Source: a virus
Length of the DNA: 64,000 nucleotides
Virus record (IMG/VR): IMGVR_UViG_3300045988_085326
Span: 64,001-128,000 of that record
Strand: one strand, 5' to 3'
Part shown: piece by piece, positions 1 through 44,309 of the stretch
How positions within the stretch are numbered: the stretch's first letter is position 1
How the letters are laid out: each line of letters begins with the position of its first letter
Notes under the pieces: generated by a model
Told to the model about the DNA's origin: nothing
The model's input: the letters and a program-made list of their open reading frames with translations, nothing else
Database searches by the model: none
Program-made: the position numbers and the translations under genes

Positions 1-310
1 CATAATTATAAGGATAATTACCTAAATAATTAGAGTTGTTTAAATAATTCATTTTTCATAAGTCCTCCTACTTTTATCTCTGTTCTTTGACATATTTTTA
101 TGAAAATTTAAGTGAGATAATTTTAATAAAAAGTCCTTAATTTTCATAAAAATTTATTAAACATTTAAAATTTAGCAGGTAGTTAATTTTTTCTAATAAG
201 GGAGGATAAAATTTACGAAAAAATAGATTTGAAAATAAATAGATTAAATAGAATTTAATATTGCTTAGCAAAAATAAAAATGGGCATAAAAAAATGCGTA
301 GATTTTAAAT

Positions 311-1465
311 CTACGCATATTGTAATCGATCTATCAGCTCCATATAAATATCATGAGCAAATAAATCATGAAATAATTTATCTAAACTACATAATGTTCT
401 GTAGCTATTTTTCCTCTTTAAATATCCACGCCAAGACTGATAAGAACAATTAATATCATTTAATGTCATTAAACCTTGGTCATAGAATTTTTTAAATTTT
501 TTCATTTTTCTTCTCATATGAGTTACAGCAGTTCTAGACACTCTTCTCAATATTTTTCCACTTTCTGTAATATTATATTTAGTTTTTAAAAAAGTGAATT
601 GATGAGTCAATTTAACAATTTGAGTTTTATTAGGATTTAATTTAATTCCAATTTCATCACACATCCTTGTAATTTCTTGTAAACAATATTACAAATATTC
701 TTTACTATGATGAATTAAATAACTATCATCCATATATCTTGCATAACCGCGAATCCTTAAAACCTCTTTAATATAATGGTCAATATGATTTGGATAGTTA
801 ATAGCTAGAATTTGACTGGTTTCACTGCCTAAACCTAAACTTTTTTCTCCAAATGGTACTACAAATTGTTTTGTTAAATTGATAATTCTTTCATCAAATA
901 TCTTCTTTTCTAGATCATCAAATATAGGTTCATGAAGTATATTATCAAAATAACCAGAAAAATCAATTATTAATATATATCCATCTCTTCCATATTCATT
1001 ATAAAATTCAACTAAATGTTGAGTTAATCTTTTATGAGTAAAATCTACACCTTTACCTTTCAAACTAGCTCCATTGTCATGAATAAGAGATTTAGATAAT
1101 ATAGGTAATAAGCAATGTTTATTAACTGCTTTTTGCACTACTCGTTCACTTATATGAACACTTCTTATATATCTAGTTTTTCCTCTCTCGTTTAATATAA
1201 AATGATGGAATCCTTTAGAAACACTTTTACCATCATAAATATCTTCTCTAGTTTGGTAAACATTTTTAAAAAGATTCCGTTCATATTTTTGTGTGCTAGC
1301 TTTCCATGATACAGTTTTCTTACATTGATAGAAAGCATCACATAAGTTATCAAAAGAAATTATTTCATCAAAATTTCCATATTTTTCATTTAATTCTTTT
1401 TTCTTTTTAATTCTTTTTGCTACTCTTCTCTGATAGCGAGCTTCTTTTCTTTCTTCGCTTGTCAT
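311..1465 (-). CDS. DGR reverse transcriptase; reading frame interrupted by a single in-frame TAA (plus coords 689-691), so the ORF track shows two same-frame ORFs 689..1465 and 311..664
   Basis: Motif 4 SLGLGSETSQ (DGR-type GxxxSQ), motif 5 YARYMDD, motif 6/7 GIKLNPNKTQIV in the downstream ORF. Both ORFs share one frame (1465 and 664 both = 1 mod 3). Sits immediately downstream of TR as in canonical DGRs. Confidence 0.8.
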
Positions 1466-1784
1466 AATAAAAACTCCTTTGTACCGCCCAATATTACTTG
1501 TATATTTCCTTCGGTCAGCGGCATAGAATAATGGGCATGAAAATAAAGCAAATATACGAATCTTTATCCATGCAAGCAGCGTCCGCCCAATTCATCAAAG
1601 TATTTATTTACCAATTAAGGAAGATCACTTTTTCATGTGGTTATATTATTTGATTATATTATTTTCGCTTGTACTGCGTTTAAAAATATTGAGATTTATT
1701 CAATAATAAATCTACGGATTTCAGTTTGTTGTCCGTGGTATTGGATTTAAACATAACTTACTTTGTCTGTACTTTTATACCACA
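1466..1784 (-). ncRNA. DGR TR-to-RT spacer, presumed part of the TR-containing RNA used for cDNA priming
   Basis: Non-coding ~320 nt between the 3' end of TR and the RT start codon. Locally GC-richer than surroundings. Function assigned by analogy with characterised DGRs, not seen directly. Confidence 0.35.
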
Positions 1785-1909
1785 TAAAACACACAGGAAC
1801 CCCAATGTTGGTGTTAGACGCATTGTTGTTGTTGGCATTTCCGTTGTTGTTGACATTACAGCAGTTAGTAGAGTTACCAGAGTTAACAGTAGCTAACCAC
1901 CAGTTGCAG
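1785..1909 (-). repeat. DGR template repeat (TR)
   Basis: 125-bp near-repeat of 2691..2815 (offset 906). All ~21 mismatches are T in TR on the plus strand, i.e. A on the coding minus strand. TR-encoded peptide is Asn(AAC)-rich: CNWWLATVNSGNSTNCCNVNNNGNANNNNASNTNIGVPVCF. Confidence 0.9.
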
Positions 1910-2010: not shown

Positions 2011-2451
2011 TCATTTACAATTATGTTTCATAAAGTTAATATGACTTTCATCTTCACGCTTTAATAAATCATTTATCAGCTCTTCTTCGTCAACAATAAA
2101 ACCTACAACACGTTCTCGCACTGACATTTTGATATGAAGTCTTTCTCTGGCATCCTGCATTTCCGCGAGGATATCTTCACAACAATCATACATATTCATT
2201 AAAGCTTCTTTCTTTCTTTTGTATAAGAAAGATTCGTTGTCATCTTCACCTACACAATTATAATAGGTGTTTGCATTTTTAACAAGTTCCCGACATAAAT
2301 CAATCATAGGTATTGAATATACAAATCTATATCTTTTTGGAAAGACTTTTTCATTCATTACCATAGATGTAACTTCTCTTCTTATCCGCGTAGCATTATG
2401 AATAAACTCGACCTCTGATGTGGCTCTGTTTCTTCGTAATACATTACTCAT
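2011..2451 (-). CDS. putative DGR accessory variability determinant (Avd)-like basic protein, 146 aa
   Basis: Located between target gene and TR, which is the canonical Avd position. Basic, helical-looking. No motif-level confirmation. Confidence 0.4.
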   Translation of the reverse strand: MSNVLRRNRATSEVEFIHNATRIRREVTSMVMNEKVFPKRYRFVYSIPMIDLCRELVKNANTYYNCVGEDDNESFLYKRKKEALMNMYDCCEDILAEMQDARERLHIKMSVRERVVGFIVDEEELINDLLKREDESHINFMKHNCK

Positions 2452-2647
2452 TTAATGTAGCTAACTCCTCTTCAAGCTGATTGATTTGTGCTCTCAAATT
2501 TTCTCTATAAGTCTTAATCTCTGCATATTCGATGTCAGAGATTAAGCCTTCAGAATATTTAAGAGCTTTATAGTCAGAATTAGTAAGTAACTGTTTTAAT
2601 GCAGTTATTTCACCATTAATTTGGTCTGCTCTTGTATTCATTTCCAT
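2444..2647 (-). CDS. small coiled-coil protein, 67 aa, unknown function
   Basis: ORF with heptad-like LKQLL...LEEEL pattern. Translationally coupled to 2011..2451. Confidence 0.4.
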   Translation of the reverse strand: MEMNTRADQINGEITALKQLLTNSDYKALKYSEGLISDIEYAEIKTYRENLRAQINQLEEELATLNE

Positions 2648-2676: not shown

Positions 2677-3489
2677 TTAGGCAGAGATTCTAAAACACAC
2701 AGGAACCCCAATGGCGGTGCCAGACGCATAGTAGTAGTCGGCAAATCCGCCGCTGGTGACACGACAGCAGCGAGTAGAGTTACCAGAGTTAACAGTAGCT
2801 AACCACCAGGCGCAGCGACCTCCGTTATTTCCTTTACCTTTGATTCTATGTGTGTAACTATTTGCAAATAAAGGATATTGTACTGCCTGACCTTGTGAAA
2901 ATCCTTTAGTTCCCCATACTACTGAACCAAATACTTCATATTCATGAGGTAGCCATAAATTACCCATATCTTGCCAAGCCCAAGTTGTAGAATCTGTTAA
3001 TGCACCACTTGCACTATATCTACTCTCTAACAAGCTTCTTTTATTTTTAATTACAGCTTTTACATCAGTTGGTAACTTAGGATAAATAGTATTATTCAAA
3101 TAAGAATATACATTAGATACCAACCAAGGATGAGGACTTGTTGAGTTACCATTGTTATTATTAGTTGTATTCCATTGAACATAATTATTCAAGCAATCAA
3201 CACTAATCCAATCAATATGATGTCCAAGTTGCTGGTCTGCAGTCTTATAATAAGTGTCAATACCTGCAATCTGCATTTTGACTACTTCTCCACCAGTCAA
3301 TGTAATTGTCTTATAATCACCAACTCTTAAATCACTAAAATCAGCATTCTGACATTTAGTTTGTAATTGTGCCCAAGTATACTCAGACAATTCACGACCT
3401 TCATAAAGTTGAGGTCCTTCGGTTTTAATTTCATAAATATTACCGATATCATACTCAACACCATTTAATAGCAATTTTGTAATACCCAT
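2677..3489 (-). CDS. DGR target protein: distal tail fibre/receptor-binding protein with C-terminal C-type lectin (FGE-sulfatase-like) fold carrying the VR
   Basis: 270 aa. C-terminal WLPHEYEVFG...CAWWLAT...GVPVCF is typical of DGR variable proteins (Mtd/TvpA class). Last gene of the tail module. Confidence 0.85.
   Translation of the reverse strand: MGITKLLLNGVEYDIGNIYEIKTEGPQLYEGRELSEYTWAQLQTKCQNADFSDLRVGDYKTITLTGGEVVKMQIAGIDTYYKTADQQLGHHIDWISVDCLNNYVQWNTTNNNNGNSTSPHPWLVSNVYSYLNNTIYPKLPTDVKAVIKNKRSLLESRYSASGALTDSTTWAWQDMGNLWLPHEYEVFGSVVWGTKGFSQGQAVQYPLFANSYTHRIKGKGNNGGRCAWWLATVNSGNSTRCCRVTSGGFADYYYASGTAIGVPVCFRISA
2691..2815 (-). repeat. DGR variable repeat (VR) at the 3' end of the target gene
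   Basis: Aligns to TR 1785..1909. VR peptide CAWWLATVNSGNSTRCCRVTSGGFADYYYASGTAIGVPVCF differs from the TR peptide only at TR-Asn/adenine positions. Shared 3' block encodes GVPVCF. Confidence 0.9.
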
Positions 3490-7849: not shown

Positions 7850-9868
7850 TTATATCCTTTCTAGCGCACGTGTGCAAGAGAGAGTCATAGTGCTTGTAAT
7901 ATCAAGAGGTAATGTAATATTATTTATCATATAATCTCCATAAATTCCGCTAACTGCATCTCTTACTGTAATACGCATATTTGGTTCTAAGTAAAAGATA
8001 GGAATTGCACTTACAGTAATACTTTCATTATAGCTAGTATACTGATGCAACATCTGTCTTACTACATTATATGCAGAATTAAAATTGCCTCCACCAGTAA
8101 TCATACTAAATAAGTTTTGACTTAATTGAATATAATCTTGTCCTTTATTTTCGCACTCTTGTCTTAATTCAGCAATATCTTCTGCTGCCTGATTTAATAA
8201 TACTAAATCTGGTATTTCAGGCTCAAATACACAGTTTACTTTATCATCATTTATTACTTTTGTGCGGCGACCAATATTAGTAATACTAATTTCAGATATA
8301 TCCGCTCCAGTATCAATAAAATCTAAATAGAAATCAATATCACTTGGATACTTTAATACTTCATCAAAGAACTTCCCATTTTCTACATCATAGAGTTTAG
8401 GCCATTCATTCTTTAACTCTGTATAATAATAATTAGAATCTATCGCTAATGGGTCACTTGAACTTCCGCTTAAGTATAACTCTGTTCGCCAATCCTTAGT
8501 AGTTATAGCTTTTAATCCTATTGTTATTTCATCATAAGTTTTTGTCTTTGACTTCCACTCATAAATTTTCTTAGTAGAAGCATCCATATAAAAAACTTCT
8601 TTAACTCCAACAAGAGGAAATTGACTTTTATTAGGAAATACAGTCGGGCATTTAGCTTTTATAATTTTATCTTCTGGGTCTTCATAAAAGAAAACTTGAT
8701 AAGTATTTCCTATCTGCGGCTTGTGGTCAATAGCAAGATGATAACGTAAAGGATAAGTTCTACCTTCAATATCTTCGCGAATGCCCCATACAATAAAATC
8801 ATTCTTTATCATATTATACTGCGGAGTATTGCTATAAGAAGTAATCAAAGTGTTATCATCAAATGTATATACTGATTTTCCTTTTGTGTAATCTGCAAGA
8901 TAATCTTCTTTTGTTATTTTATCCAGTTCTACTGTTGCATGGCTTGTGTTTAAATAATTCTTTATTTCTTGAAATACAAAATTTCCATCTATGTCATAGA
9001 AATATTCATAATTTCCTAATAAAACTTTTATCTTATCTAATATATCACATACTGAATTGCCAGCATCTGCAATTAGTTCATCTGGATAAATAAAATCAGT
9101 GTAAATATATCCAATATCACTACCATATTCATACATCTTATATAAACCCGCGGCAGCCGCTTCCGCACCATCTGTAGTTGGAGTATATTGGATTGAACTT
9201 CCATTCGTTTGTTCTATAATATAAAGTGGAGAACTTCCAATCCATTTCATTACCTTTTTTATTCTAGTATCTAAGTCACTAATAATAATCTTTCCAAGCT
9301 GTTCTCCGCCAAAATGACTAACTACCTCTTGTATTATCTGATAAATAGTAGGTTGAAGAATTACATATTCTCCATCTTCATTAACAGTTTCATACTCATG
9401 GAAAACTGTAGAGGCTGGTATAACGCCTCCGCATTCTCCATTTAAAAGACACATTTTATCCTTTAATTGTAAAGAAATAGTAACTCCAGAAGTTCCACTT
9501 GAAATAGATGGATTTATAATAACATATATTCCAAGTGGAAACCAGATAATTGGAAATTGACTATAATATTCTGTAGTATTTAAAATACCAATTTCTAAAT
9601 CTACTTTCTTATTAATTGAAATTAGATTATTTACGTTAGTCAAATCATTCTCGTATTCTTGAGCTACCATAGTTAAATTACAAGTTCTTCTTATGCTAGA
9701 AGTCCCGTCTAAATTTATACTTCCACTAATTACTTGACCTTGTATTGTTCTAATTGGTTTTTCTACAAAATCAAGTAAAGTTATTCTAACATATTGCTCC
9801 TTATTTTGTAATTTATCTATTACTTGCAGAAAGGCAGAGTCTTTTAAATAAGGATAATTCTTTCTCAT
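7850..9868 (-). CDS. baseplate/tail structural protein, 672 aa
   Basis: Long ORF contiguous with neighbours. Confidence 0.5.
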   Translation of the reverse strand: MRKNYPYLKDSAFLQVIDKLQNKEQYVRITLLDFVEKPIRTIQGQVISGSINLDGTSSIRRTCNLTMVAQEYENDLTNVNNLISINKKVDLEIGILNTTEYYSQFPIIWFPLGIYVIINPSISSGTSGVTISLQLKDKMCLLNGECGGVIPASTVFHEYETVNEDGEYVILQPTIYQIIQEVVSHFGGEQLGKIIISDLDTRIKKVMKWIGSSPLYIIEQTNGSSIQYTPTTDGAEAAAAGLYKMYEYGSDIGYIYTDFIYPDELIADAGNSVCDILDKIKVLLGNYEYFYDIDGNFVFQEIKNYLNTSHATVELDKITKEDYLADYTKGKSVYTFDDNTLITSYSNTPQYNMIKNDFIVWGIREDIEGRTYPLRYHLAIDHKPQIGNTYQVFFYEDPEDKIIKAKCPTVFPNKSQFPLVGVKEVFYMDASTKKIYEWKSKTKTYDEITIGLKAITTKDWRTELYLSGSSSDPLAIDSNYYYTELKNEWPKLYDVENGKFFDEVLKYPSDIDFYLDFIDTGADISEISITNIGRRTKVINDDKVNCVFEPEIPDLVLLNQAAEDIAELRQECENKGQDYIQLSQNLFSMITGGGNFNSAYNVVRQMLHQYTSYNESITVSAIPIFYLEPNMRITVRDAVSGIYGDYMINNITLPLDITSTMTLSCTRALERI

Positions 9869-12604
9869 TTAATACTCTCCTTTCATCAATTCATAAATAT
9901 AATCAATTAACGCATCTGTTGGACATTGTACTACATTGTCATCAGAAAATTCATACCAGTCTGCATGGTAAAAGATATATTTTTTATTTCCAACCGTATA
10001 AATACCATTTTTAACAGGTTCAGTTATATTACTTAATGAATCAGATTCATTAGGAATAATTCTAAATTCATTATCTTTTACTTCCATATTACTATGAGTT
10101 CCAACTACAATAGTATTACCTCTTATTTTGAAATAATTTGCATTTAATTTAATACAATCATTTTCCATATCTAAAGCATCTTCTTTTATTTCTTTCAATG
10201 TTCCTTCATCTACTTTAACAATTTGTTCTTCTAAATATTCTTCATTAGCTTCATATAGCTGAATCCCGCCGAAATGTAGTCCATTAACAACAGCATCAGG
10301 GTCATAAAATTCTAATATTCCAGTTGGACCAATTTCATGTTTAAAGAAATCATCATCAAATGAATCTCTCACATAAACTATTGTTCCAGGCACTGCTTCT
10401 ATTGTTACCTTATTCAATGACAAAAGCTGCTGATGATATGAAGCATAATTCAATAAATATCTCTGATAAATTCTTAGAAAGACATTTTCATTAACATTAA
10501 ATGTATCTCCCATTTGACCTACTTTTGTATAGAAATACATTTTATTATATAATAAGCTAGTATTTTCTACTTGGTCTACTTCAATCATATAATCAATAGT
10601 AACAGTTGAAGCGACAGGAAAAACAACTGATGTAATTTCCGTATCTTCATCAATTAACTCATAAAAACCTCGTGAGCTTACTATAATAGGTTTATTGTTA
10701 ATATAAACAATGTAACCTAATGCAGTATTCTCATTTGGTTTTTCATTCGCGGGAAGTGGTGCTATAGTACCATTTGCTGCGGTCTTAATTAAGTATGGTG
10801 GCATATCAAATTCTAATCGTAACCATTTAATAAACTTAACTGAGTTAATATATTTTTCAGTTGTTTTACTTGTATATTTTTCTTGTAATATTTTCAAAAT
10901 ATCTTGTTTTATACCTTCATAAGTTCCTTGTAACTGTCCCAAAGTAGCAAAAGTATATTTTAAAAATTTACTATAAGTTCCTATTGACTGAATACCATAT
11001 TTTTCAAAATTAGCTAATGAACAATTATCAATCTCATATGCAGTAGCATTGAATGTATATAACATTCTTCCTAAAGTCTGATTAGGTGTGAATGAAATAT
11101 CCATCAACTTAACTAAAATATTTCCTTCTGTTGTAGAACGAAATAGCTTAATTGTATTTGCATGGAGAAAGTCCATTACTTTTTCTCTAAATTCACGCTC
11201 ATAAATAAAATCTTGATATTCATTAATCTCATTAACATCATTATAATTATCATAATAAGTAATCGCACTTCCAAATGTGTTTTCCCTATTGATAAAAATA
11301 CCTTCTTCATCACAAAAGGCAGTAATTAAACCAGAAATAGGAAACTGTCTATAACCAACATTTCCATTACGGCGGATGACTGGATATTTAGAACCTAAAG
11401 TGTCAGTTCTAGACTCTAACATAGTTTTCTTAAAAGAAGCTATTTGCGGATTATATTTTAATCTAATCTGCATATCTCCTCTTGTTAAGAACATATCATC
11501 AAATACAGCCATAACTGGATATCTAATATTTACAACAACTCCGCGGTCTCCCTTAGAATTTCTTCTTTGAGCACAGTATTTATACCAAACTCCGCTCTCT
11601 ATAGTATAATCATACCAAGTATAATTTAATACCTTACCTTCTGCGATAGTGGTTTCATGTATATCTTCCCATATAGTAAAATTACTTTCACTAGAAGAAC
11701 GTCTAATAGTTAGGTTTCCAAAGAAAAATTCAGTAATGGTTGCAACAATATCAATTCTTACTCTACCAAATTCTTCTTCCATCGTTGCAGTTACTGTTGC
11801 ATCTAATGAGTCTATTGTATTTTGAATAATTAAAAATACATAAGAAACACTATCAGTATATTCATTTACAGTAGTGTAACTAAATACAACTTGATAAGTT
11901 ACTCCATCTTCTAAAGCTGTCTTTAAAGTATAATTAATTTCATTTGGATTATATACATTAGTATATATATCTTCACTATCATAAATTAAAGTATCATTTG
12001 ATTTTTTATATATTTTTATTCTATATAATTTAAGATATTCTTTTTCAATCTCTTCATTTTCTTCATAATACATACTTCCAATAAAATCAACTACTTTTGA
12101 AGTAAGTATAATTTCACGTTCATCTATATTTTTAAAACCTTTTAAATATAATTCAGGTTTTTGTATTCCTTTTATTAAACAAACAGTTGACCATTCAGAA
12201 AAAAACTGCTGATTATCAATCAACCATTTTGCAATTTGATTAGAATCAGTTAAATTAGTTGCTCCGACTCCAGTAAAGCGAAGTTGGACTTTATAATATT
12301 GATTTAATTCAAAAACTCCGCTTTGTAAATCTTCAGGGTTAATAGTAACAAAATACTTATCATCACTATCTCTACTTTCATCTTTTTGTAATGTAGCAAG
12401 TTTAATTCCTGCTGGATATAAGCTAGGAGTTAAAGCAGATAAATTTGTATTTTGATTACTAATAACAATTTGTACATTTTTAATTTCTTCTGCACTATTA
12501 TAAATAGATAAAGAAAAATATATTCTACATGCCGTGGTTCTTATAAAAGCAGGCATGTAGGTATCCACAATAGGTGGATATAAATTATTTCCTATTCCAG
12601 GCAT
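9869..12604 (-). CDS. baseplate/tail structural protein, 911 aa
   Basis: Long ORF whose stop abuts the start of 7850..9868. Confidence 0.5.
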   Translation of the reverse strand: MPGIGNNLYPPIVDTYMPAFIRTTACRIYFSLSIYNSAEEIKNVQIVISNQNTNLSALTPSLYPAGIKLATLQKDESRDSDDKYFVTINPEDLQSGVFELNQYYKVQLRFTGVGATNLTDSNQIAKWLIDNQQFFSEWSTVCLIKGIQKPELYLKGFKNIDEREIILTSKVVDFIGSMYYEENEEIEKEYLKLYRIKIYKKSNDTLIYDSEDIYTNVYNPNEINYTLKTALEDGVTYQVVFSYTTVNEYTDSVSYVFLIIQNTIDSLDATVTATMEEEFGRVRIDIVATITEFFFGNLTIRRSSSESNFTIWEDIHETTIAEGKVLNYTWYDYTIESGVWYKYCAQRRNSKGDRGVVVNIRYPVMAVFDDMFLTRGDMQIRLKYNPQIASFKKTMLESRTDTLGSKYPVIRRNGNVGYRQFPISGLITAFCDEEGIFINRENTFGSAITYYDNYNDVNEINEYQDFIYEREFREKVMDFLHANTIKLFRSTTEGNILVKLMDISFTPNQTLGRMLYTFNATAYEIDNCSLANFEKYGIQSIGTYSKFLKYTFATLGQLQGTYEGIKQDILKILQEKYTSKTTEKYINSVKFIKWLRLEFDMPPYLIKTAANGTIAPLPANEKPNENTALGYIVYINNKPIIVSSRGFYELIDEDTEITSVVFPVASTVTIDYMIEVDQVENTSLLYNKMYFYTKVGQMGDTFNVNENVFLRIYQRYLLNYASYHQQLLSLNKVTIEAVPGTIVYVRDSFDDDFFKHEIGPTGILEFYDPDAVVNGLHFGGIQLYEANEEYLEEQIVKVDEGTLKEIKEDALDMENDCIKLNANYFKIRGNTIVVGTHSNMEVKDNEFRIIPNESDSLSNITEPVKNGIYTVGNKKYIFYHADWYEFSDDNVVQCPTDALIDYIYELMKGEY

Positions 12605-43473: not shown

Positions 43474-43502
43474 AGTATAGCACAAATTTTTTCTTTTGTC
43501 AA
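43474..43502 (-). promoter_or_regulatory. sigma-A-type promoter for the leftward structural operon
   Basis: Minus strand reads TTGACA-17-TATACT. Confidence 0.6.
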
Positions 43503-43522
43503 CTCGTTTAATGATACTTTAA

Positions 43523-43551
43523 TTGATTTATTTAAAAATAAATGATATAAT
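43523..43551 (+). promoter_or_regulatory. sigma-A-type promoter for the rightward early region
   Basis: TTGATT-17-TATAAT. Divergent partner of the promoter at 43474..43502. Confidence 0.6.
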
Positions 43552-43584
43552 TATTATAAGATAAAAGTAAAGTAGGTGAATAAT

Positions 43585-44136
43585 ATGGTATTAAATGCAT
43601 ACGGTAGCGCGATTTTAAAAAGTGAAATGGATTTTTCTATATGGGCAATGAAAAAAGGAATTAAAAATCCAGTTGAAAAAAGAATAGAAAGTGAAAAAGA
43701 GGGAGAAACTGCTAAATACAATAAACTTATTGAAGAGGGATTTGAAGTTCATGTCAGTCCATTTATACATAGCTTTAATGGAGAACCATCTAAAAAACTC
43801 TACGATTGTATCAAAAGAGAAGGCGGACCTGAAGCAGAAGAAAATTATAAAATAAAAAGATTTTTATATCAATTCATCTATATTGCTAATATTATAGGAA
43901 TTGAATATGCTGAAAAATGGATTAATAGCTATAAAGAAGATAAATATAGACAAGAGGAATATACAAGAATGGTAAAAAATAAACCTAAACTTGCTTATTG
44001 TCATTTAAAAAGTTCTAATGGTCAATGTAGAATTGATTGTCCTTTTTGGAATGGCGGATGTCAGATATCAGTCGCAGAAGAGCAGCAATCCCGCGACCTA
44101 TTAGAAGAATATAAACCACTTGAACGGAGGAGATAA
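43585..44136 (+). CDS. hypothetical Cys-containing early protein, ~183 aa
   Basis: ATG with AGGTGA RBS. CHLKSSNGQCRIDCPFWNGGCQ. Confidence 0.5.
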   Translation: MVLNAYGSAILKSEMDFSIWAMKKGIKNPVEKRIESEKEGETAKYNKLIEEGFEVHVSPFIHSFNGEPSKKLYDCIKREGGPEAEENYKIKRFLYQFIYIANIIGIEYAEKWINSYKEDKYRQEEYTRMVKNKPKLAYCHLKSSNGQCRIDCPFWNGGCQISVAEEQQSRDLLEEYKPLERRR

Positions 44137-44309
44137 AATGGAAGCATTAGGACAAGGTTTGGAGCTCTTGGAGACGCAATAGGTTTTATTGGAGGATGGA
44201 TAGGTTTTGTTTGTATAGCAGGAATTGCGGCAAGCACTTTTCTTGTATATACAGGTAAAGCTACTCTTGAACAATTAAAAGATTTATTTAATAAGGATAG
44301 GAGATATCG

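Follow-up and report, generated by a model that had tools for sequence, protein, structure and literature searches.

A premature stop codon in the DGR reverse transcriptase gene of an uncultured gut phage

The reverse transcriptase (RT) gene of a diversity-generating retroelement (DGR) near the start of the 64,000-nucleotide stretch of phage DNA analyzed here (the window) is split into two open reading frames (ORFs) by a single in-frame TAA, and the question is what this stop means for the element. The initial annotation considered three possibilities: a recent inactivation that left behind the variable repeat (VR) of an earlier active period, a programmed or leaky readthrough that down-tunes the RT, and an assembly error. 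We weighed these against the sequences of relatives, an independent assembly, and a structural model of an intact homolog.

Portal and large-terminase matches identify the window as part of a tailed phage, whose genome is low in GC. A long minus-strand block, which holds the terminase and portal matches as well as ORFs of 2,854 and 1,720 aa, gives way to short plus-strand genes at ~43,500-44,300, where the GC skew changes its sign together with the gene orientation. From this region, the modules on either side are probably transcribed divergently.

The interrupted gene and its cassette

On the minus strand, positions 311..1465 translate as one frame of 385 codons, in which the TAA at codon 259 (689..691) is the sole internal stop; the gene comprises 384 sense codons, the internal TAA, and a terminal TAG (311..313). 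The upstream ORF (692..1465, or 689..1465 with its stop) encodes a 258-aa fragment that contains an N-terminal extension, the fingers, and the palm through the catalytic YMDD motif (residues 244-247; 725..736), and this fragment is expected to be the only RT product. The downstream ORF (311..664) encodes 117 aa that correspond to RT residues 268-384 and, as mapped on an AlphaFold2 model of an intact relative, cover the end of a palm helix, the strands of motifs 6/7, and a three-helix thumb. The initial annotation had described the two ORFs as lying in the same frame, and translation bears this out: they are separated by the TAA and 8 sense codons (YCLQEITR), which are followed by the ATG at 662..664. 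It had also correctly placed the stop between motif 5 (YMDD) and motifs 6/7, as the TAA lies 11 codons past YMDD, ahead of motifs 6/7 and the thumb, and is spanned by a Pfam RVT_1 match in the joined sequence (residues 94-293, E 2.9e-16). A six-frame scan for stops with at least 70 open codons on each side detected no other stop that interrupts a recognizable domain in the 64 kb. As this is the sole such stop, and as the flanking frame is 98% identical at the DNA level to uninterrupted 384-codon genes, the arrangement is, on these comparisons, not due to chance.

At its 3' end, the RT gene overlaps with a terminator-like hairpin (294..318, minus strand), an inverted repeat of 11 pairs followed by a run of seven T residues; the overlap includes the RT stop codon. 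A gene downstream of the RT lies beyond window position 1, at locus L006 (2636-3412), where it encodes 258 aa in the window strain versus 282-287 aa in relatives, with a longer upstream gap in the window strain than in the relatives; it may use a different start or carry a second small lesion. Elsewhere on the minus strand, same-frame ORFs are split by TAA at 7850-7852 and 9869-9871 (genes of 911, 672, and 230 aa). There, the next ATG follows 0-6 nt after the stop, and these look like ordinary abutting genes.

The cassette on the minus strand is organized as is usual for DGRs. It begins with the target gene, whose 3' end holds the VR, and continues with ORFs of 67 and 146 aa, the template repeat (TR), a 319-nt spacer, and the RT gene. 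The TR comprises 125 nt with 37 adenines (1785..1909), and the VR, likewise of 125 nt (2691..2815), ends 14 nt before the stop of the target gene. The two repeats differ at 20 positions, and all 20 mismatches are at TR adenines, which is the pattern that defines a DGR repeat pair. The target gene (2677..3489) lies among tail and structural genes and encodes a 270-aa protein with a DUF6273 domain (Pfam, E 2e-8), for which an exact look-up returned nothing on record. It is followed by the 67-aa ORF (2444..2647), which is conserved in the relatives, and by the 146-aa ORF (2011..2451), which is assigned to the avd position by synteny and has counterparts of 146-147 aa in all relatives. Searches in Pfam, PHROGs, NCBIfam, and PDB sequences matched the 146-aa ORF neither to Avd nor to any other family, and it may be a divergent or a different accessory protein. 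The spacer between TR and RT (1466..1784) is presumed from its position, in analogy to the Bordetella phage BPP-1 (bioRxiv 10.1101/2023.10.23.563531), to be the Sp part of the DGR RNA.

The RT itself carries the hallmarks of the DGR clade. Besides YMDD, it has a motif 4 of the sequence LGLGSETSQ, in which S214 and Q218 are invariant and S217 is nearly invariant in the alignment, and S217 and Q218 form the SQ dipeptide that has been used as a criterion for DGR RTs (PMC3521204). What sets the element apart from an autonomous DGR, which has an uninterrupted RT, is the TAA at codon 259. In its ancestry and layout, the element is still a DGR, albeit a disabled one.

Origin of the stop codon

A query with the joined RT protein returned more than 3,000 homologs, the closest of which are uninterrupted and ~384 aa long. 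All 31 homologs in an alignment have one of the sense residues Q, K, E, L, R, or V in column 259, around which the alignment is free of gaps. The DNA of close relatives, all from samples other than that of the window, was obtained via exact-protein look-ups. The initial annotation had called for a comparison with related phage genomes, and this gave a clear result: codon 259 is CAA, without any indel, in all ten DNA-level relatives. The loci L002-L005, which come from four other samples and are ~98% identical to the window, differ from it in 24-25 of the 1155 nt of the RT gene, L019 differs in 26 nt, and L009-L014 differ in 51-74 nt, each of them with CAA at codon 259. The earlier view that the stop is a point change rather than an indel thus held, as there is no gap relative to the intact genes and codon 259 differs only by CAA>TAA. 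As the relatives have CAA (Gln) and the window deviates from it only by C>T at the first base, a transition on the coding strand that reads as G>A at plus-strand coordinate 691, we conclude from the alignments that the TAA is a derived, strain-private nonsense mutation and neither an indel nor a conserved feature.

Apart from the stop, the window RT shows few private changes. On its lineage, we counted 5 synonymous and 4 non-synonymous changes (T90I, Q259*, R316H, and G379D), and a branch-specific dN/dS based on these 5 and 4 changes includes too few to date the stop. R316H, which is private to the window, replaces a near-invariant arginine downstream of the stop. R316H and the other changes are compatible with relaxed constraint, with numbers too small for proof.

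Further searches did not enlarge the set of close relatives. In a megablast, the RT region matched none of 50,697 phage records, which thus include no named close relative; a scan of IMG/VR with the protein of an intact relative returned only 47%-identical loci, and exact DNA patterns around the stop, with N at the variable base, had 0 matches each in viral, metagenome, and genome collections. Apparently split RTs in Dulem virus 34 and Vibrio phage VP58.5 were rejected, as they were merely overlapping neighbor genes under the RT match. One ENA contig of 2,492 bp (P0028) encodes a 339-aa protein with an unrelated N-terminus of ~120 aa joined to RT residues ~157-384 that are 97% identical to the window; either the RT locus is rearranged there or the assembly is chimeric.

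Both ORF fragments are listed as separate products on 3-4 contigs (NCBI, JGI, ENA, Logan), the longest of which has 139,181 bp. The contig that Logan assembled from run ERR414233 matches the window at 100% identity across the RT gene and the whole overlap of 1,896 nt, TAA included; it ends within the TR, where a break is expected because the sequence is repeated. As this independent assembly reproduces the TAA exactly, we do not consider the stop an assembler artifact, and the assembly error suggested earlier is unlikely. Moreover, the other genes of the window strain are as long as their counterparts in relatives over the ~4.5 kb available for comparison, which shows that the window contig is not generally error-ridden. 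The window and Logan contigs may, however, share one sequencing run, so that some room is left for a sequencing or consensus error or for a polymorphism within the sample, in which case the population would carry CAA or be mixed, and the DGR would be functional. The change is a single transition seen in assembled contigs only, and thin assemblies do occur in this set, with coverages of 2.6-3.5x in the record names of some related contigs. Nevertheless, we consider an error or polymorphism improbable, as the two contigs do not differ at any of 1,896 nt, no other lesion of the window strain was found in the ~4.5 kb compared, and a substitution is unlike the typical homopolymer or indel artifact of Illumina sequencing.

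The relatives also indicate how active the element has been. The TR is identical in all 125 positions in L002, L003, L004, L009, L012, L013, L014, and L019, whereas the VR of each relative is a different one, with changes at adenine positions only; adenine-only differences between TR and VR, as in the window, were found in five relatives. L013 and L014 have RT genes that are only 3 nt apart and yet carry unrelated VRs. As VRs differ at adenines only while the TR is identical, and as even the L013/L014 pair has unrelated VRs, the DGR is highly active in this clade, and the VR of the window is a genuine DGR product. The identity of the TR extends over relatives whose RT genes differ in up to 74 of 1155 nt, so the template is far more strongly conserved than the adjoining coding sequence.

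Consequences of the truncation

To describe what the stop removes, we used the intact relative P0124. Its best match among solved structures is the RT of the Bordetella phage (bRT; 8ub7_A, E 2.3e-14), in which D138, D215, and D216 are the active-site residues and the thumb touches the template:primer duplex and the "Thumb Ring" RNA (bioRxiv 10.1101/2023.10.23.563531). D246 and D247 align with D215 and D216 of bRT, and the counterpart of residue 259 is approximately residue 228 of the 328 in bRT. In an AlphaFold2 model of P0124 (50 homologs, mean pLDDT 91.7), residue 259 is part of a helix (255-272) that immediately follows the YMDD hairpin, formed by strands 240-244 and 247-252. Downstream of it follow the strands 282-285, 290-292, 295-299, and 305-309, which make up the motif 6/7 region, and the thumb helices 311-329, 335-350, and 355-383. 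The truncated product would lack one third of the enzyme. Because the palm helix is cut short and both the motif 6/7 strands and the thumb are missing, the 258-aa product should be inactive, as judged from homology and the model.

This prediction would not apply if ribosomes passed the stop or resumed translation behind it. The initial annotation had suggested programmed or leaky readthrough, and neither the stop itself nor its surroundings speak for this. A stop at a programmed readthrough site would be expected to be conserved, and at codon 259 no conserved stop exists, with CAA in the ten relatives and sense residues in 31 of 31 homologs. Both release factors recognize UAA, and in E. coli few terminators are as strong as UAA-U. 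TAA is also the main terminator of the window, where it ends 37 of the 55 genes, 11 of those 37 as TAA-T, and no leaky context was found at codon 259, as UAA-U ends 11 other window genes as well. ARAGORN detected no tRNA genes in the 64-kb window, in the 8 kb that precede position 1 (L006), or in the four related loci L002-L005, a screen that for the window strain covered ~72 kb (window and L006), compared with 139 kb of the longest contig that has both ORFs. Folding of 111 nt (9 upstream and 99 downstream of the stop) gave no stimulatory RNA structure downstream of the stop in comparison to shuffled sequences (z +0.68), and structure-stimulated readthrough was rejected on this basis. Genome-wide recoding was rejected in view of stop usage, the six-frame scan, and the tRNA scans: TAA is the main terminator, one domain-splitting stop exists in 64 kb, and no tRNA was found in the window or in L002-L006. 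Programmed readthrough and a two-piece RT by design are thus unsupported by these analyses.

A leaky stop would yield some full-length RT, and reinitiation at the ATG at 662..664 could give a second fragment that complements the first; either would down-tune the RT rather than abolish it. The 125 codons downstream of the stop are still open, and the ATG is located 24 nt (8 codons) past the stop, next to an AAGG. However, most genes of the window have an AAGGAGG-type Shine-Dalgarno sequence ~6-10 nt upstream, whereas the 20 nt upstream of the 117-aa ORF (GTTTACAAGAAATTACAAGG) contain only this AAGG, which abuts the ATG, and no proper ribosome-binding site. M268, with which the 117-aa ORF starts, is not conserved and is replaced by L, I, or K in the relatives. 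In addition, the model predicts that such a split would cut the palm helix and drop residues 259-267. Taking this together with a stop that no relative shares and that is therefore not programmed, with the wide use of TAA and TAA-T as terminators, and with the lack of tRNAs (suppressor or other; window and L002-L006) and of a stable structure behind the stop, we regard a leaky stop or reinitiation as highly improbable.

We therefore consider it likely that the strain-private CAA>TAA exchange at Gln259 recently knocked out the RT of an otherwise complete DGR in this uncultured gut phage. Translation would stop 11 codons past YMDD, and the 258-aa product would keep the fingers and the catalytic aspartates but lose part of the palm helix, all of the thumb, and the strands of motifs 6/7. 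Such a product would be unable to hold the template:primer or to make cDNA, so mutagenic retrohoming would end in the window lineage, and the receptor-binding-type target protein would keep the last VR that it had received. No second lesion was found in the cassette of the window, as the TR, the non-adenine positions of the VR, and the gene at the avd position are all intact; this, and the absence of non-adenine differences between TR and VR, argues for a recent event. Of the three possibilities considered at the outset, recent inactivation with a VR from earlier activity is therefore favored by the ancestral CAA, the intact cassette, and the 20 of 20 mismatches at TR adenines, while its recency and the frozen state of the VR are what we infer from these data. 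In effect, the RT gene at 311..1465 is a very young pseudogene.

RT lesions in the clade and known systems

Three further independent RT disruptions were found in the same phage clade (L017/L018, L019, and L023), which together with Q259* makes four independent lesions among ~130 relatives: the nonsense mutation, deletions at codons 290-291 in two lineages, and a deletion of ~28 nt. L017 (3001-3879) and L018 (1034-1912), from ERR3199542 and ERR3199658, share a 1-nt deletion (TTT>TT) at codons 290-291 that leads immediately to a TAA and corresponds to window positions ~590-596. In L019 (1268-2421; ENA, 2.6x), one T of a T6 run is missing (T6>T5) at the same spot, codons 290-291, which also results in a TAA, and the ORF at the avd position is shortened to 117 aa. 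In L023 (2769-3891; ENA, 2.6x), the frame is shifted by the loss of ~28 nt near codons 86-94, which removes "GFxHFTLxE". The low-coverage lesions of L019 and L023 may be real or may be assembly errors, and the L017/L018 lesion is present in more than one run. Loss of the RT seems to recur in this clade, as far as the assembled sequences tell.

An intact sibling allele of L017/L018 exists in L020 (ERR3199654), which stems from the same accession series. Over 6.9 kb, L017 and L020 differ in the frameshift, two SNPs, and the VR only; the VRs are distinguished by 22 substitutions and an in-frame deletion of 3 nt, which gives target proteins of 269 versus 270 aa. This pair provides a natural comparison for the freezing of a VR after RT loss.

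Within one accession series, a near-isogenic sister phage occurs both with a disrupted and with an intact RT allele (ERR3199542/658 versus ERR3199654), which also bears on the question of whether the window VR might still be diversified in trans, that is, by the intact RT of a co-infecting relative. The TR, the spacer, the gene at the avd position, and the VR of the window are intact, and its TR is identical in 125 of 125 positions to those of relatives with intact RTs, so the parts required for this would be available. Yet the sample shows no evidence of co-infection, and diversification in trans would modify the proposed knock-out rather than replace it, as the resident RT would still be null. 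We think that there is very little chance that it occurs.

It is also conceivable that the RT knock-outs are recurrent and selected events that lock the VR, with null alleles being favored once the VR fits the local host, and do not reflect neutral decay. We consider this idea improbable. The T-tract at codons 290-291 might serve as a slippage-prone off switch.

For annotation, our results mean that the locus should be described as a DGR with a disrupted RT, and that its two ORFs belong together as one pseudogene. The VR is best regarded as a historical product and not as evidence of current hypermutation in the window strain. The locus adds one well-polarized case, in which the ancestral codon is known, to a documented class of recently inactivated DGRs; it does not introduce a new mechanism. 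With the three other lesions of the clade, it hints that RT loss is common in natural phage populations.

Large gut phages with recoding of TAG or TGA and with phage-encoded suppressor tRNAs resemble the phage of the window in size, in AT-richness, and in carrying an in-frame stop within a gene that looks essential. In contrast to these stop-reassigned phages, the codon in the window is TAA, the main terminator, and it is a single, unconserved stop, and neither the window nor L002-L006 revealed a suppressor tRNA. Among named phages, the Roseburia phage Shimadzu (LR596903.1) has the closest RT, with 48.7% aa identity over 89% of the RT. Shimadzu is a phage of gut Firmicutes with a 45-kb genome and an uninterrupted gene annotated as an RT, and it has no similarity to the window at the DNA level.

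The RT of the Bordetella phage BPP-1 DGR (8UB7-8UBE) belongs to the family of the window RT (E 2.3e-14), and the catalytic aspartates of the two align; the BPP-1 DGR also shares the gene order (target with a 3' VR, accessory position, TR, spacer, RT) and the adenine-specific changes of the VR. Unlike in BPP-1, the window RT has a stop at about position 228 of the 328 bRT residues and, with 384 aa, a longer thumb and C-terminus, no similarity to bAvd was detected in the protein at the avd position, and the target carries DUF6273.

The closest parallel is offered by DGRs with RTs that are truncated by a nonsense mutation, as in Ruminococcus gnavus ATCC 29149, by a frameshift, or by an IS insertion (Schillinger et al., 2012, BMC Genomics 13:430, Fig. 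4A; PMC3521204). In these truncated-RT elements, VR and TR differ by mutations of A only, which was read as very recent inactivation or as possible sequencing errors (PMC3521204). The window element likewise combines a premature RT stop with an intact TR/VR pair and adenine-only differences. Whereas the earlier cases were found in bacterial genomes, the present one lies on the contig of an uncultured gut phage, and here the ancestral codon is provided by 98%-identical relatives and the stop is recorded in an independent assembly.
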